A DNA stretch of 64,000 bases from assembly GCA_965263355.1 (NCBI GenBank), contig CBDHHL010000032.1, positions 1,312,001-1,376,000 on the forward strand, in the 5' to 3' direction. This document shows, piece after piece, positions 11,438 to 17,844 of this stretch. The notes under the pieces were generated by a model that saw only the letters and a list, made by a program, of their open reading frames with translations, was not told the DNA's origin and searched no databases. The translations under genes were made by a program, and so were the position numbers. How positions within the stretch are numbered: position 1 is the first letter of the stretch; the number at the start of each line of letters is the position of its first letter. Source of the DNA: Leptolyngbyaceae cyanobacterium. GTDB taxonomy: Bacteria > Cyanobacteriota > Cyanobacteriia > Phormidesmidales > Phormidesmidaceae.

Positions 11438-11875
11438 AAATGAAACTTTACGCAATAAACAGTTGCATTTCTAAATTTCCATTATATTAAGGCAGATGAA
11501 TAGCGAGTGAATTGATTATACAAAACACACCTAAATTTGTTATTCTAGAGAATGCGCTTACGGGCTGACTAGAGCTGAATTAGTTCTTAGTTCATAAATG
11601 CTAGAACATGCTTACTAATTATACCAATATTCTGAGTCAAGGAAATTGATTCGGAATTTTTATTTTTCTCTGGGTATCTCCTTAGTGAAGGTACTCAATA
11701 CTTTTCACGGATATTTCTCCACCTGAGTATGTGATATGTTTCAAGCCTTATTAATTGAAGGTTAAGAGTTTTAGCTTATTTTAAGCCTGAGTTAAATTGC
11801 TCAGCTCTTGTGGTTATTATTCGGTTAATTTTACGTGGGCATTTTTTAAGGCTAAGGGAGTTTGCATTAGTAGAC

Positions 11876-12547
11876 ATGGCGCATAAAAAGGGTACCGGTA
11901 GTACTAGAAATGGTCGAGACTCTAATGCCAAACGTCTGGGCGTAAAACGATACGGTGGCGAGCGTGTAAGTGCTGGCAGTATTTTAGTGCGCCAAAGGGG
12001 TACCAAAATACTGCCAGGAAATAATGTTAAGCGGGGCGGGGATGATACCCTTTTTGCCTTGATCGAAGGGATCGTAACGTTTGAGCGCAAAGGTAAATCA
12101 CGTAAGAAAATAAGCGTTTACCCACATTTTCTCAACTTGGATGAAAGAGACGCAATAATGGACGGCAAATTTACTCAAGTACATGAAAGTCAGGATAAGT
12201 TTACCGATTCATATGTTAATAAATTTAATGAATCTGCTATAGTCCAAACGGCTCATACAACAGGTACTACAACTAAGCAAGAATCATTGTCTAAGTCTGT
12301 GGCACGTCGATTTAAACAGGTCTCAAGAGAGCCTCTAAACAAAAAGAACCCTCAGGGAGAAATGACATTAAAGGCTATTGAGAAAGAGTTGGCCAAACTC
12401 TTAGGTTCAGAAGAAAAAGCAAAAGCTTGGCTCAATAAGCCTCATCGTGAACTTAGCAACAAAACACCTGCAAGAATGATTCAAGCTGGCCATAGTAATG
12501 TAGTTTTTCAACTAATTTTATCAATTGCAAGTGGGATTCCAAGCTAG
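11876..12547 (+). CDS. rpmA: Ribosomal protein L27 paralog fused to an MbcA/ParS/Xre-type antitoxin C-terminal domain
   Basis: [16 protein letters not shown]...KKISVYP is a complete L27; C-terminal [28 protein letters not shown] fits the toxin-binding domain; aagggag upstream of ATG 11876. Confidence 0.85.
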
Positions 12548-12883
12548 CCTGGCTTTAAGTATAGTTTGTCAAATTATTACAACTACATACTATTCTAAAC
12601 ACCTCATTACATCACTATGTGGTTGTATAGACGTCCCTATTTACTTTTGAAATGGTTTAATATACCCTGATGAAAAACATTAAAAGTATCGGTATATACA
12701 CAGTGTTTAGGTTTGTACGGAGACATAAGCGAAAGCATGCATGATTTATGTGCAAAACATACATAGCTCAAGTGTGATTTGCAGCACATTACAGTAATAC
12801 TTGATGTCACGATATTTATTTGTGCCTTCAAGTAAGGTCAGTTATGTCGACGGAAAGTAGGTTCTCTGCGTGGAGTTTTGTAG

Positions 12884-13528
12884 TTGCTAATGCAAGGTCG
12901 GGGTTGGCGTCTTATCTTAGAAAGTCGTTTCACTATCGAACAAATTATCAATGGTTTGGATGCACTTGAACATGCAGGTAGATACAATCCGCCACCTGAA
13001 ATGGTTGGTAAAGAAAATGCTTTTAGGGTGGTTTACCTCTCAGGTAGTGCTAGAACTGCTCATCAAGAGATACGAGGTCGTGCAGGCGCAGACATTAGAA
13101 ATCATACACTTATTGAATTTGAATACGTGCTACAGGATAATGCATGGATTGACCTAACGGATGAAGCTATTCAACGTGAGTTTGGCGTAACAATCAGCGA
13201 GCTTTACGAAAACTGGCGTTTTCTCAATGCTCAAAATCAACTTTCTACAACCCAAAGGATTGGCATAAGTGCCTATGCGAATGGTCAGATTGAGGCCATC
13301 AAGGTACCTTCAGTTCGAGATGATGGAGGCTTCAACTGGGTGATTTTTCCAGACAGGTTTCATCCAAACAGTTACATTAACTTTACACCTTCTCAAAAAG
13401 TAAGCATCAGTCAGAACATAGACTTTGATGAGGTTAGCTCTGATATGGATGTTGAAGATGAACAAAATAATTCATTAAGCGAACAAAGAGCCATAGCCGA
13501 AGAACTCATGGGCGACTCTAAATTTTAA
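12884..13528 (+). CDS. RES-domain toxin (NAD+ phosphorylase/ADP-ribosyltransferase fold)
   Basis: GWR, GRYN, VVYLS..ARTAHQE and IKVPSVR..GGFNWVIF match the RES motif order; GGAG upstream. Confidence 0.8.
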   Translation: MLMQGRGWRLILESRFTIEQIINGLDALEHAGRYNPPPEMVGKENAFRVVYLSGSARTAHQEIRGRAGADIRNHTLIEFEYVLQDNAWIDLTDEAIQREFGVTISELYENWRFLNAQNQLSTTQRIGISAYANGQIEAIKVPSVRDDGGFNWVIFPDRFHPNSYINFTPSQKVSISQNIDFDEVSSDMDVEDEQNNSLSEQRAIAEELMGDSKF

Positions 13529-13594
13529 TCAAAAATTCAATTACAATTGAACTCCTTTTAATAGCCTGAATTTGTAAATTTCAGAAAGCTACGC

Positions 13595-15652
13595 TCACAC
13601 AACTATTCTTGTCTTCTGAATTCTTATATATCTCAGACTTACTTGAGCAATTCGATTTTCTGGAAAAAACTGGATTAGCTCTTCTAAACTTTTTTGTGCT
13701 TTTGAGAGATAGTATGAAATGTGTTGTCTCGATAACGCTTCTCGATAAAACATCTTGGAACTATTGCTGTCATTAATTACAATATGATAGAGCGCTAGAT
13801 GTAAGATATTATCTATGTTGTTTGGATTTCGCTCATAAAACAACTGAGCCATGCGTATAGCTTTATAGATATCCCTTTCTGCACTCTCTTCATTACCTGT
13901 TACTCGATGTATGATAGAACGCCAATATAGGGTCCAGTTTGAAGAAGGGCTTAATTCCAGAGCGTGTTTAAAATCAGTCATCGCCTGCCCATATTTTCCA
14001 ATTAGGCCATATACCTCTCCACGTCTTCGAATCGCCCAACGGTAGTCGGGCTTTAACTTGATAGCCTGATTGAAGTCACCTAACGCTTTCTTATAGTCCT
14101 GTCTAAACCGATAAAGCTGTCCTCTTTGCGCAATAGCCCATACATAAGCAGGATCTATTACTATGGCACGGTTGAAATCTTGTAGAGCCTCTTCATACCT
14201 TTCGATTTCCCGATAAAAACGTCCTCTTGCTGCAACTGACCAAGCGTAGCTTGAATTAAGTTCAATAGAATGATTAAAATCTTCTAAAGCTTCTTCATAT
14301 TTATAAATTTGACGTAGTTGCCAACCTCTTTTCGCTAATGCTTTGAAATGATTCGGAGTTAGCTTCAAAACCTGACTATAACTCTTAATTGCCTCATCAT
14401 GGCGTTTTAATTCAGACAGAACTTTACCAAGGTTGTACCAAGCCGTAGGATCATTGGGCTCAATTTTAGCTGCTCTTTCATAGAGGTAAATAGCTTCCTG
14501 TTTCCGACTTAAGCTATCAGCAATGAGTCCTTGAAGCGTCCAAATTCTAATGTCATCAGGTTTCAACTGCAGCGCTCTATCACCACTAACTATAGCTTCT
14601 TCGTAGCGTCCTAATAGAAAAAAAGCAATAGCCTTATTGTGCCAAAAATCACTTATATCTGAATTTAAGCTAATTGCCTTATCGTAGCTTTCTACAGCCT
14701 CTTCATAGCGACCTAGTTTAGTAAGTGCAATACCTCGATTATAAAAAGCTGTTGTATAGCTTGGATTTAGTTTAATAGCTTGATTAAAACTTTCTATGGC
14801 TGCATCTGCTAACTTACTTTTTGCAGATGTGGTAGTCTCAATAGACTCAATATTAGTAAGTATTAGACCTTTGCTATTCCAAGCAGTTTCGTTGCTAGGA
14901 TCAACCTCTAAAATATGCTCAAAACAGCTAAGAGAGGCTTTGTAGTCTTTCAATAAATATAAAATCTCTCCTTTCTGCAAACATAGATCTATTGTCCTTG
15001 AATCATTTGATTCTGTTTTAGCTAATAACTCTTGAACTTGTGATAGCCTCTGAATTAGATCATTTGGCGTTAAGTGATCGTATTTCCTAAGTCCCTCTCT
15101 CTGAGCTGGTTGCTTAGATTTTTGTGCTGTTTCCTTAGGCCCAACTGCTAAATCAAATACGCCCGAACTCCAATCGAAAAAATCTGGTGCACGCCGCATA
15201 AAATATTTGACTGCAAACCCTGGCAAAAAGAAAACAAAACAAGCATGACTGAAGTGCTCACGAAATCTTTCTCGCTGTTGATTTAGATGACTAAGGATTT
15301 GAGGAACTGAGTTTAGATTATAGTAGCTGCCTTCACCCCCATAACCAGGTTTAATGTCAGCTTCTAAAGACTTTTCTAAACCTTGAATCAAGAAAATATC
15401 AACTTGATTTCGATTATCATGATTTGCGACTAAATCATAAAGGTTCTCAATAGGGGCAGTTAGTCCTAAAGTGCCAATTTTTTTCTGAGATAAGTCATCT
15501 TTAATCTGAGGAATTAAATCAAAAGCTTCTGTTGGAGAACATTCTACAAAAACAATGCCAAACCCTTTGCGTCTCCTCAGGGAACGGATTAAAGCTCTAT
15601 ATACTTCTTCTTTGGTCAGAAAAAGACTTCCAGTGTCCTTTGTCACTGTCAT
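13595..15652 (-). CDS. Tetratricopeptide-repeat protein with an N-terminal HLNQQRE/APDFFDW domain
   Basis: About ten TPR motifs; this N-domain is typical of partners of cyanobacterial P-loop ATPases. Confidence 0.85.
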   Translation of the reverse strand: MTVTKDTGSLFLTKEEVYRALIRSLRRRKGFGIVFVECSPTEAFDLIPQIKDDLSQKKIGTLGLTAPIENLYDLVANHDNRNQVDIFLIQGLEKSLEADIKPGYGGEGSYYNLNSVPQILSHLNQQRERFREHFSHACFVFFLPGFAVKYFMRRAPDFFDWSSGVFDLAVGPKETAQKSKQPAQREGLRKYDHLTPNDLIQRLSQVQELLAKTESNDSRTIDLCLQKGEILYLLKDYKASLSCFEHILEVDPSNETAWNSKGLILTNIESIETTTSAKSKLADAAIESFNQAIKLNPSYTTAFYNRGIALTKLGRYEEAVESYDKAISLNSDISDFWHNKAIAFFLLGRYEEAIVSGDRALQLKPDDIRIWTLQGLIADSLSRKQEAIYLYERAAKIEPNDPTAWYNLGKVLSELKRHDEAIKSYSQVLKLTPNHFKALAKRGWQLRQIYKYEEALEDFNHSIELNSSYAWSVAARGRFYREIERYEEALQDFNRAIVIDPAYVWAIAQRGQLYRFRQDYKKALGDFNQAIKLKPDYRWAIRRRGEVYGLIGKYGQAMTDFKHALELSPSSNWTLYWRSIIHRVTGNEESAERDIYKAIRMAQLFYERNPNNIDNILHLALYHIVINDSNSSKMFYREALSRQHISYYLSKAQKSLEELIQFFPENRIAQVSLRYIRIQKTRIVV

Positions 15653-15654
15653 GG

Positions 15655-17022
15655 TTAGTTTATTCTAGAGAGAGCTTCTTGAAACTGCCTGATGCCTTCT
15701 ACCAGTGGATGAACGTTACACCAGGTTTGTAAAGCCTCATTTTCATCGTAATAACGATATTCCAATAGGCAACGATTTAACAGGAGTCGTAAATGAGCTT
15801 CATCTCGCTTGATTTGTCTATGGTGATAGACATTTGCCAATAAATCCCACTGATCTTCTTGAATTTGACGACGGTAAGTTTGCCGCGCTTCTTCAACAGC
15901 TCGATTGACAGCTTGAGCAGTAATGGGTAACTCCTCTGTCCAATCAATTGCTTTTTGAATCAGCTGCATCAGATTTCTGACATGCCCTCCACTCATCAGG
16001 CAAAGCTTATCTAACGTTTCTGAATTATCAAAAACTGGAGGAATCTCTAATCCTTCTACAGAACCCACTAAAGTTTGGGTAAGTCTAGAGTCAATTATTT
16101 GAATACGTCGTGAAATCAGTTCCTTGAGTTTATTCAGGCCTTGCTGATTAGCACTATTGTCAAAGTTCCGAACCATAACCATAGGTAATACATCAGGCGT
16201 ATCATAGTTGTCCTCTAATCGAGTTGCCCGACCGGAATAGACCATTGTAATGGGGACAGTATAGATAACATGGCATTCCAATCCCTTAAGCATTTCACTC
16301 CGATTCAGATAGATTTCATCGTAATTACTGGGTTTCCCTTCTTCTTTTGTTTCGACAATTCGGTCTAAATTATCGACAATAATTACTAAACCTTGATTTT
16401 TCTCAGGGGGTAATACCTCCCGAGCTTGAATAATAAAGTCGTTAAGAGCATTTATTAAAGAGGGAGTATGGTTATTGATCCTTTTGCGTAGCTCGCGACG
16501 TTTATCTGGGACTGCTTTCAGATTTGCCATGATTTTTGCAAATTGAGAAACCTGAGCTTCCAAGCTTAACCCTTCAAACTCCACTTCCGTTAAGGCTAGA
16601 TCTCTAAGGGATACCCAACGTTGTTCAAGCCACTGAAGCAAAGGATTGTGATTTATTAGCTTAATTTCCTCAACTAAATGACGGGTACAAGCAAACAGAA
16701 TTTCTGCATAATCTGTATCTTGAGGTTCGATATCCAGCTCATCAGCGGCAAAGTAAACAACGAAATATTTATTTTTTTCCAAATACTCTTTGAGTCTTGA
16801 AAGTTCTGTGGATTTGCCAACACCTCGGTGTCCCGTGTAAAGCTGACAGGTTGGTTTTCTCGAACGAGTAATCTTACGTCCCAGCTCTCGAATAACATCC
16901 CATTTGCCACGAACTTCCTGACAGTCTACGTAAGCTTCCTTCGACGGTGGTTGAAAAGGTTCGAATGAGCTGTAGATCTCTATCAATAATTCTTCTGACT
17001 TCAAATTCAAGGGAAACCTCAC
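15655..17022 (-). CDS. P-loop ATPase (AAA/KAP-like)
   Basis: Walker A GHRGVGKSTE, Walker B LVIIVDNLD, SGGHVRNL; 2 bp upstream of the TPR gene. Confidence 0.85.
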   Translation of the reverse strand: MRFPLNLKSEELLIEIYSSFEPFQPPSKEAYVDCQEVRGKWDVIRELGRKITRSRKPTCQLYTGHRGVGKSTELSRLKEYLEKNKYFVVYFAADELDIEPQDTDYAEILFACTRHLVEEIKLINHNPLLQWLEQRWVSLRDLALTEVEFEGLSLEAQVSQFAKIMANLKAVPDKRRELRKRINNHTPSLINALNDFIIQAREVLPPEKNQGLVIIVDNLDRIVETKEEGKPSNYDEIYLNRSEMLKGLECHVIYTVPITMVYSGRATRLEDNYDTPDVLPMVMVRNFDNSANQQGLNKLKELISRRIQIIDSRLTQTLVGSVEGLEIPPVFDNSETLDKLCLMSGGHVRNLMQLIQKAIDWTEELPITAQAVNRAVEEARQTYRRQIQEDQWDLLANVYHHRQIKRDEAHLRLLLNRCLLEYRYYDENEALQTWCNVHPLVEGIRQFQEALSRIN

Positions 17023-17289
17023 TTAGAACAGCATTCGAAGCTACAGAGATGAACCTAAGACACAAAACCCGACACTTCAAGCTTTTACTTAACTAACAAA
17101 GAAATATCTTTAATTAGTTTTTCCCTTATTGCAAAAGCTATTCAATACAAAATGAGTCTAACAAGAGATGTTTCAACTGTCCTTGTTCATGCGTAATTTC
17201 TTCAAGGCATTTCAATTCCCTACATTAGGTAAATAGCCTAGACTGACAGTGTTAACTTTTATTGATTATCAACTAGCTCATTAATATTT

Positions 17290-17844
17290 ATGCAATCAGC
17301 TGATTCCAGTAAGTCCCTGGATCGATTTCGTATTTCGCCACTGATTAAGGTAACCTTGCTCAGTTTTTATGTTGCTTTGTTGTTGCCATTACCATTTTTG
17401 GCCCAAGCAACGGACGCACCGATTAGCCCTAAAGTGCTGGTGTCACTCGCAATATTGGGTGCTGCACTGTTAGGGGCAGGCTTGAGTGAGCAGGTACATA
17501 CCTCTGATGACGGCATTGCTATGGTGTCACCGTTACCATGGCGGGGTTGGTCACTCCAGTGGTCCGAAATTAAGTCCCTCAAGCCTCGGTCCACAGGGCA
17601 AAATGGAACGGTTTACTACTTTATTACCGAGGCAGCCGACCGAGCTTATCTATTACCAATGCGGGTGGTAGGGTTTGCCCGACTAGTGCGCACCGTGGAA
17701 GCAAAAACCGGGATTGATACCCAGGATGTGACACCGCTGGCTCAACCTTGGATGTATCTGTTTTTGCTAATTATGACAGTATTTCTATTGCTGATGGACG
17801 CCTGGACAGTATGGACAGCCACCCATGGCGGTGTTGTAGGTTAA
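17290..17844 (+). CDS. Conserved cyanobacterial membrane protein
   Basis: FRISPLI...LPLPFLA and AYLLPMR...PLAQPWMY motifs; transmembrane helices. Confidence 0.7.
   Translation: MQSADSSKSLDRFRISPLIKVTLLSFYVALLLPLPFLAQATDAPISPKVLVSLAILGAALLGAGLSEQVHTSDDGIAMVSPLPWRGWSLQWSEIKSLKPRSTGQNGTVYYFITEAADRAYLLPMRVVGFARLVRTVEAKTGIDTQDVTPLAQPWMYLFLLIMTVFLLLMDAWTVWTATHGGVVG

Follow-up and report, generated by a model that had tools for sequence, protein, structure and literature searches.

Introduction

In RES-Xre type II toxin-antitoxin (TA) systems, such as MbcT-MbcA, ParT-ParS, the P. putida RES-Xre pair and NatT-NatR, the antitoxin gene comes first, the toxin carries an R-E-S triad, and the two genes are expected to abut or overlap. 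Makarova et al. 2009 describe the pair as a RES protein with an Xre helix-turn-helix (HTH) partner (PMC2701414), and the excerpted text of a second source counts ADP-ribosyltransferases, for example ParT, among the RES toxins (PMC12457610). Here we report a locus in a 64,000-nucleotide (nt) stretch of DNA from a marine Leptolyngbyaceae cyanobacterium (GCA_965263355.1, contig CBDHHL010000032.1, positions 1,312,001 to 1,376,000; hereafter the window), in which a RES gene is preceded by an antitoxin gene of unusual build: a complete ribosomal protein bL27 (L27, encoded by rpmA) runs in one open reading frame (ORF) into a predicted RES-binding antitoxin module. The fusion had been pointed out in an earlier note made from the letters of the window, and the present analysis follows it up.

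The RES-Xre systems are the closest described relatives of this locus, which shares with them the triad, the gene order and a C-terminal antitoxin domain modelled to occlude the nicotinamide adenine dinucleotide (NAD+) pocket of the toxin, as in the excerpts of PMC12457610. It differs from them in that a complete ribosomal protein takes the place of the HTH or short helical region, in a conserved 342-nt gap between the genes, in a 52-amino-acid (aa) acidic tail on the RES protein, and in that both proteins score below the NCBIfam subfamily cut-offs. A second group, the stand-alone aRES proteins, defends against phage through NAD+ depletion, according to the part of a preprint that was available (10.64898/2026.01.28.702374). 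The same part presents them as RES-domain NAD+ degraders found in defence islands, 300-600 aa long, with a second domain and no antitoxin. The RES protein here is 212 aa long, has a cognate antitoxin encoded upstream and falls outside the aRES group.

On the ribosomal side, the fusion resembles ordinary bL27 in its full-length domain at equivalog score and its intact N-terminal tail, and plastid bL27c in having extra C-terminal residues (~55 in the plastid protein). It departs from ordinary bL27 as a second copy apart from rplU, carried on an acquired island, with His46 replaced and with a 140-aa extension ending in a predicted toxin-binding domain. A looser parallel, by analogy only, is found in plant nucleotide-binding leucine-rich repeat (NLR) immune receptors, where an integrated decoy is a copy of a host target fused to the receptor; here, likewise, a host-target copy would be joined to an immune or cell-death control module. 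As the earlier note had supposed, the L27-antitoxin fusion appears to be previously undescribed: full-text literature searches (RES or antitoxin with L27, ribosomal-protein fusions, decoys, receiver domains, Leptothoe) returned no description of such a fusion, and the available part of Kaur et al. 2020 makes no mention of one (PMC7159879).

A complete L27 continues into an antitoxin module

Four sequences carry the fusion: the window, Leptothoe spongobia TAU-MAC 1115, and two metagenomic proteins, P0002 and P0004. The features of the fusion gene in the window are as follows.

11876..12547, + strand: fusion ORF, 223 aa, with bL27, linker and predicted RES-binding antitoxin module; same open frame in L. 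spongobia, P0002 and P0004
11876..12124, + strand: complete bL27 domain, residues 1-83 (Pfam, TIGR00062), with L46 instead of the cyanobacterial His
12125..12274, + strand: poorly conserved linker, residues 84-133, no Pfam match
12275..12544, + strand: antitoxin module, residues 134-223, consisting of helix 138-154 plus the Xre/MbcA/ParS C-terminal domain; tail 215-223 modelled in the RES active site

The 223-aa frame on the + strand runs from the ATG at 11876 to a stop at 12545-12547 with zero internal stops, and ORF calling, Pfam and NCBIfam agree with the earlier note that L27 leads into the antitoxin domain in a single uninterrupted frame. The profile searches that the note had proposed (Ribosomal_L27, Xre/MbcA/ParS_C and RES) matched all three domains above their Pfam cut-offs. 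The L27 part is matched by Ribosomal_L27 (PF01016) at E 1.8e-35 and 121.3 bits against a cut-off of 20.5, with residues 2-81 covering profile positions 1-79 of 79, and by the NCBIfam L27 equivalog TIGR00062 at 124.5 bits (cut-off 90.35). Among solved chains, Firmicute bL27 comes closest (E 1e-32). The AHKKG N-terminal tail is intact, and the first 17 residues are identical in 4/4 fusions and agree with canonical cyanobacterial L27. In the ribosome, the N-terminal tail of L27 extends to the peptidyl-transferase centre. Further along, the fusion reads TKILPG, a deviation noticed before, although the canonical cyanobacterial form is better written TK(F/I/Y)HPG; N35 and G52 are each altered in 3/4 fusions, though invariant in canonical cyanobacterial L27.

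An extension at the C-terminus has precedent. Canonical cyanobacterial L27 proteins have C-terminal tails that vary from about 2 to 16 residues, and the plastid bL27c chain in a solved ribosome (5mlc_X, 194 aa, match 58-139) continues ~55 aa beyond the domain. By analogy with these, L27 plausibly tolerates a C-terminal extension.

The linker had been put at ~85 aa; because antitoxin homology begins near residue 134-138, its true length is ~50 aa (residues 84-133). Among the fusions its identity falls to ~38% and all its indels are in-frame. An internal methionine, Met95 (12158-12160), lies within the linker and has an equivalent in 3/4 fusions, P0004 being the one that lacks it. None of the four sequences has a stop codon ending the L27 frame, so a ribosome initiating at the L27 ATG must yield the fusion.

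The antitoxin module contains the pattern G.EEKA.AWL.KP..EL..KTP..MI quoted in the earlier note. Xre_MbcA_ParS_C (PF09722) matches residues 172-203 (profile 2-33 of 51) at E 6.8e-07 and 29.6 bits against a cut-off of 24.5. The NCBIfam model Xre_ParS_antitoxin (NF049845) aligns residues 138-221 with profile positions 27-110 of 112 at 32.9 bits, below its cut-off of 90, and a profile built from the C-terminal parts matches the P. putida Xre antitoxin 6gw6_B (E 0.002) and MbcA 6fkg_C (E 0.0063), in both cases to the chain end. The idea that L27 replaces the HTH holds in that the Pfam scan matched no HTH family in the fusion and the N-terminal part is L27; it needs qualifying in that the module already covers most of the length of a ParS/MbcA-type antitoxin. 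In the Xre-type antitoxins, the HTH serves autoregulation. An AlphaFold2 model of the fusion from a shallow alignment had a mean pLDDT (predicted local distance difference test) of 42.1 and was confident only at residues 163-219 (73-87).

The predicted RES toxin and the spacer before it

Downstream of the fusion, the second half of the pair reads as follows.

12548..12889, + strand: antitoxin-toxin spacer, 342 nt, with a candidate RES promoter or 5' untranslated region (UTR) in its last ~150 nt
12890..13528, + strand: RES toxin, 212 aa (Pfam RES, alignment with 5 homologues)

The assignment of the next gene to RES stands, on a Pfam match and an intact R-E-S triad. RES (PF08808) matches residues 8-160 at E 2.4e-13 and 50.8 bits against a cut-off of 23.2; the NCBIfam model Res_ParT_toxin scores 25 bits, below its cut-off of 110. 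Its probable start is the ATG at 12890, as in the homologues, rather than the TTG at 12884. The triad is encoded at 12980-12982 (R31), 13067-13069 (E60) and 13310-13312 (S141); R31 and E60 are invariant in 6/6 aligned RES sequences, and S141 (in the motif KVPS) in 4/4 full-length ones. The R and E also align with those of MbcT in a weak profile match (E 0.62). In one source the L. spongobia homologue goes by the name 'RES family NAD+ phosphorylase'. An AlphaFold2 model of RES from 6 sequences reached a mean pLDDT of 35.6, and a single-sequence search of RES against the PDB gave chance-level matches only. Beyond the Pfam match, residues 161-212 (13370-13525) form an acidic C-terminal tail with the conserved end NNSLSEQ..IAEELMGDS.F.

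The RES gene does not directly adjoin the fusion; the conserved 342-nt spacer lies between them. Against L. spongobia, 291/350 spacer columns are identical overall. In the part at 12740-12889 the figure is 140/150 (93%), above that of the coding parts (81-84%) and well above the 51% of the spacer that precedes the fusion gene. For a structured RNA in the spacer there was no Rfam match, a fold z-score of 0.26 and one compensatory pair in 89, and the short spacer ORFs differ from those of L. spongobia by amino-acid changes. The last ~150 nt before RES are likely its promoter or 5' UTR, as far as sequence comparison can tell.

Conservation and reality of the junction

The independent assembly of L. 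spongobia has the same continuous frame (222 aa, L001:5749-6417) in the same gene order as the window: radical SAM, DUF1830, DUF4079, fusion, spacer, RES, TPR and ATPase. Among the best 120 of 2,475 whole-protein matches, both domains occur in 3 proteins, namely the window's own, P0002 (79% identity, 223 aa) and P0004 (51% identity, 225 aa). RES homologues were found on contigs of 5,995 and 36,161 bases, the same sizes as the contigs of P0002 and P0004. A contig of sequencing run X1 spans 11700-13600 without a difference and may itself be the window's source; contigs of runs X2 and X3 cross the L27-linker junction at 12120-12160. The fusion is therefore present beyond this assembly with its junction spanned, and the L. 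spongobia frame together with the contigs across the junction rules out misassembly. In a run from another study, a 247-nt stretch of the antitoxin part is also present, at 9 differences (96% alike).

At lower depth, runs X2 and X3 also contain another form of the locus, which is roughly 82-87% alike over 11875-13125 and has different sequence in place of 169 spacer letters (12600-12771).

The public annotation of L. spongobia, from the Prokaryotic Genome Annotation Pipeline (PGAP), lists only a 128-aa antitoxin, P0005, which starts at the Met95 equivalent. Because just this 128-aa part is listed, architecture searches of databases would miss the fusion.

The earlier note took the fusion for a second, accessory rpmA with no rplU upstream. 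The genes upstream are indeed DUF1830 and DUF4079, and in L. spongobia, where the canonical rplU-rpmA was looked for, it lies on another contig and encodes an 86-aa L27 ending in ...SVYPVTA. We sampled 401 genomes across the phylum; L27 was found in 397 of them, and two L27 matches in 3. In two of these three (G113 and G125, L019-L022) contig ends cut a single rpmA into two pieces that overlap by 27 codons. Since these two doubles are split genes, L. spongobia is the sole searched genome with a true second L27.

The antitoxin part was found in 1/172 genomes of the family and was matched in 7/401 genomes of the phylum, L. spongobia (G001) among them; the other 6 matches comprise 4 Xre-RES-type pairs, one 199-aa protein beside a RES gene and one L21 case, described below.

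Selection on the parts of the fusion

The earlier note had proposed computing the ratio of nonsynonymous to synonymous substitution rates (dN/dS) on the L27 part. Our estimates are pairwise, window against L. spongobia, and the linker segment measured comprises residues 84-165. The L27 part has a dN/dS of 0.021 at a dS of 1.7, with 94% amino-acid and 81% nucleotide identity. The corresponding ratios are 0.41 for the linker, 0.14 for the C-domain and 0.18 for RES residues 1-160. Across the first 20 codons, which encode the N-terminal tail, 9 codons differ synonymously and one by an A/S replacement. By these estimates purifying selection on the L27 part is very strong, as strict as that on a working ribosomal protein. 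Such constraint fits the ideas of docking, decoy and release alike, without discriminating among them.

We also asked whether conversion by the canonical gene could explain the conservation of L27. At the DNA level the fusion L27 parts match one another at 81% identity, but canonical rpmA, taken from L. spongobia and five relatives, at 67-73%, and gene conversion is ruled out on that ground. The four fusion L27 parts cluster in the tree (support 83/80), and the grouping of the sequences fits a single origin.

As a separate observation, the L27 part has a dS of 1.7 against L. spongobia, resembling the flanking host genes (1.8 or saturated), while the remainder of the island described below (12125-17022) has 0.37-0.71.

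The modelled antitoxin-toxin complex

The note had also proposed modelling the complex of the C-domain with RES. We modelled RES residues 1-165 with fusion residues 130-223, each with its own alignment. The complex has an ipSAE (interaction prediction score from aligned errors) of 0.80, whereas the highest-scoring of 3 controls stopped at 0.06; across three runs at least 81% of contacts were shared, and partner pLDDT did not fall below 77. The pass mark of the tool is reached by 116/157 solved complexes and 2/215 mismatched pairs, a rate that is rough here given the custom alignments. In the model, fusion residues 215-223 contact RES R31, Y49, S51, E60 and 141-143, and helix 138-154 packs on RES residues 97-98 and 127-131. 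The antitoxin module is thus modelled as wrapping RES with its C-terminal tail inserted in the NAD+ pocket, and an occluding pose of this type is described for known RES antitoxins in the text available from PMC12457610. The modelling gave a high-scoring interface with the tail on R31 and E60, a score that may mirror likeness to solved complexes.

Other fusions of the antitoxin domain

A search with the profile of C-terminal parts against 1.84 billion representatives returned 128 matches at E <=0.001 and 0 at <=1e-10. The Pfam scan covered 62 of the 128, hand-picked and mostly longer ones. Among these 62, the partner domain was an Xre-like HTH in 5 and a receiver domain in 14. There were also single cases of a phycobiliprotein (P0129, E 6.8e-39), HU (P0135, E 1.8e-19), a CopZ-like zinc domain (P0182) and the C-terminal end of L21 (P0128, in frame). 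The L27, L21 and phycobiliprotein fusions resemble one another only in their last 46-63 residues, and because homology is limited to the C-domain, these fusions must have arisen independently.

The L21 case lies in genome G129 (L024:1104-2020), where an L21-type domain stands in the canonical operon, between rplU and rpmA; a deletion has put it out of frame, and its open frame is 1429-1647. None of the 16 other genomes of the family of G129 has the L21-type domain, and a metagenome scan for such a fusion turned up only an unrelated 63-aa stand-alone domain (L055).

The low-GC island

The pair sits on an island with two further genes on the opposite strand.

11438..17289: low-GC accessory island, ~5.85 kilobases (kb), between the DUF4079 gene and the orf17290 homologue
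11438..11875, + strand: upstream spacer, presumed home of the fusion gene's own promoter; 51% of columns identical to L. spongobia
13595..15652, - strand: TPR protein, 685 aa (Pfam TPR), forming a separate two-gene module with the ATPase
15655..17022, - strand: P-loop ATPase, 455 aa, AAA_16/KAP-like (Pfam; weak NCBIfam match to the Sll1717 family)

The DNA here was described as AT-rich, and the profile of guanine-cytosine (GC) content shows the same: 33-44% over 11450-17300 against 47-53% in the flanks. L. spongobia has the same island at the same site. In 11/11 loci of other relatives, the DUF4079 gene is followed by homologues of orf17290 and orf17898 within about 90-150 nt, and since the site is empty in all of these, we regard 11438-17289 as an insertion. 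A terminator-like hairpin lies at 11629-11657, 3' of the DUF4079 gene; a promoter and terminator scan gave counts no higher than in shuffled sequence.

Homologues of the ATPase are present in 153/172 genomes of the family in up to 7 copies. In 7/7 further loci the ATPase was paired with the TPR protein, and the TA pair was not within the fetched flanks of any. We therefore rejected the TPR protein, the ATPase and the TA pair as one four-gene system, because the ATPase-TPR module recurs without the TA pair. Judged by the gene content of these loci, the island is composite. PADLOC and NCBIfam searches with the ATPase and TPR proteins gave only weak antiphage-like matches.

Discussion

We consider it very probable that this locus encodes a working RES/antitoxin pair in which the L27 moiety is kept by selection. 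That the L27 moiety acts through the ribosome is the reading we favour, though a tentative one, which we would place a little short of evenly balanced. The complete statement, an island-borne type II RES TA system with an L27-fused antitoxin and the ribosome step included, is as tentative as that step.

If the ribosome is involved, the L27 part would still bind at the 23S rRNA site of L27, or vie for it, and the flexible linker of ~50 aa would let the antitoxin and the silenced toxin hang off the 50S subunit or its assembly. Were the synthesis, assembly or stability of the antitoxin lost, for example through translation shut-off, ribosome breakdown or phage takeover, RES would be freed, and freed RES would deplete NAD+ and the cell would stop. 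Coupling to the ribosome is plausible because canonical tails vary, because plastid bL27c is extended, and because the N-terminal tail is strictly constrained. It is plausible, too, that the constraint on this tail would matter mainly inside the ribosome. The L21 fusion P0128, along with the broken copy in the rplU-rpmA operon of G129, supplies a second case of a ribosomal protein as partner of this domain.

Several observations weigh against this reading. His46, which is invariant in 21/21 aligned canonical cyanobacterial L27 sequences, is L, L, F and F in the four fusions; the replacement need not abolish function, because L27 of B. subtilis has Tyr at this position. The RES homologues P0124 and P0125 break off near residue 115 and have lost S141. 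One of the truncated proteins is 100% identical to the window RES across its first 114 residues, and the other lies on a contig equal in size to that of the fusion P0004. Truncation in these two homologues implies that the fusion can be retained when the toxin is broken. Genome G129 yielded no RES gene, so fusions to ribosomal proteins are not always tied to a toxin. Since RES-antitoxin complexes are already solved, the passing score of the model speaks for likeness and is not proof. Initiation at Met95 could, as far as the frame suggests, also give free antitoxin, and binding of the fusion to the ribosome is something we infer rather than observe here. PADLOC-DB 2.0 gave 0 defence-system families for the fusion and 0 for RES, and the search of viral contigs turned up nothing related to either the antitoxin part or RES. 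The lack of such relatives leaves a phage origin of the pair, which we also considered, with no support.

Other explanations can be offered for an L27 at the front of an antitoxin. One is that the L27 moiety stays outside ribosomes as an integrated decoy, a bait for a factor of a phage or competitor, so that a hit on the bait would destabilise the antitoxin and release RES in abortive infection. Proteins with the most similar antitoxin domains carry other abundant host proteins as fusion partners (the phycobiliprotein, HU and the end of L21, beside the CopZ-like and receiver domains, among the 62 scanned), L27 is strictly conserved including its N-terminal tail, as a faithful mimic would need, the pair sits on an acquired island, and RES-mediated NAD+ depletion is a phage defence in aRES, going by the part of the preprint cited above (10.64898/2026.01.28.702374). 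Against these stand the lack of any PADLOC match for fusion or RES and the replacement of His46, which makes the mimic imperfect. We also know of no phage factor that targets cyanobacterial L27, and on balance we find a decoy unlikely. A more mundane account, which we think somewhat less probable still, is that a toxin-binding module with no promoter of its own came to lie behind a duplicated rpmA and hitch-hikes on it, with L27 supplying a promoter, a start codon and perhaps solubility or instability, and with the pair being an ordinary addiction module for the island. The rarity and patchiness of the island (1/172 family genomes; 1 true second L27 in 401 phylum genomes), the decay of toxin copies, the loose constraint on the linker (dN/dS 0.41) and the varied N-terminal partners expected of a promiscuous domain all suit this account. 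A mere expression handle should drift, however, yet the L27 dN/dS is 0.02 at a dS of 1.7, and the L27 parts keep an equivalog-level score and form one group of four that is retained down to 51% overall identity.

Two further accounts seem to us very improbable, the second only marginally less so than the first. The fusion might be an alternative L27 that recruits RES, as an enzyme such as an ADP-ribosyltransferase, to a ribosomal or translation target, with the C-module as adaptor. RES toxins do include ADP-ribosyltransferases such as ParT, on the portion of the literature already cited (PMC12457610), the L27 part looks fully functional from its sequence, and RES has an unusual conserved acidic C-terminal tail. 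In the model, by contrast, the C-terminal tail of the antitoxin module would lie on R31 and E60 in an occluding position, like known antitoxins, and the truncation of the toxin in two lineages fits a toxin better than a housekeeping enzyme. Alternatively, the locus might make two products, an ordinary L27 paralogue and a separate 128-aa antitoxin from Met95, which would leave the joined frame without meaning. The public annotation of L. spongobia gives exactly this antitoxin from the equivalent Met, and 3/4 fusions keep that residue; but P0004 lacks it, and in 4/4 no stop ends L27 despite a linker at ~38% identity that has taken in-frame indels only.

To return to the L27-fused antitoxin as a sensor, it could belong to a wider class in which a fused copy joins or mimics a core machine, and RES stays silenced only as long as that machine (ribosome, phycobilisome or nucleoid) is whole and in production. 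Such a class would be a bacterial counterpart of guard or integrated-decoy immunity wired to NAD+ depletion, with the L27 fusion as its best-conserved example. We regard such a class as speculative and, for now, unlikely.

The listing of the 128-aa antitoxin alone, which hides the fusion architecture in L. spongobia, flags an annotation problem. What triggers chromosomal TA systems is a long-standing question, and the architecture of this antitoxin points to a candidate input, the ribosome. The joining of a constrained ribosomal protein to a toxin-binding domain offers a hypothesis open to direct test, and if the parallel L21, phycobiliprotein and HU fusions were to behave alike, they would make up a class of sensors derived from duplicated parts of core machinery.

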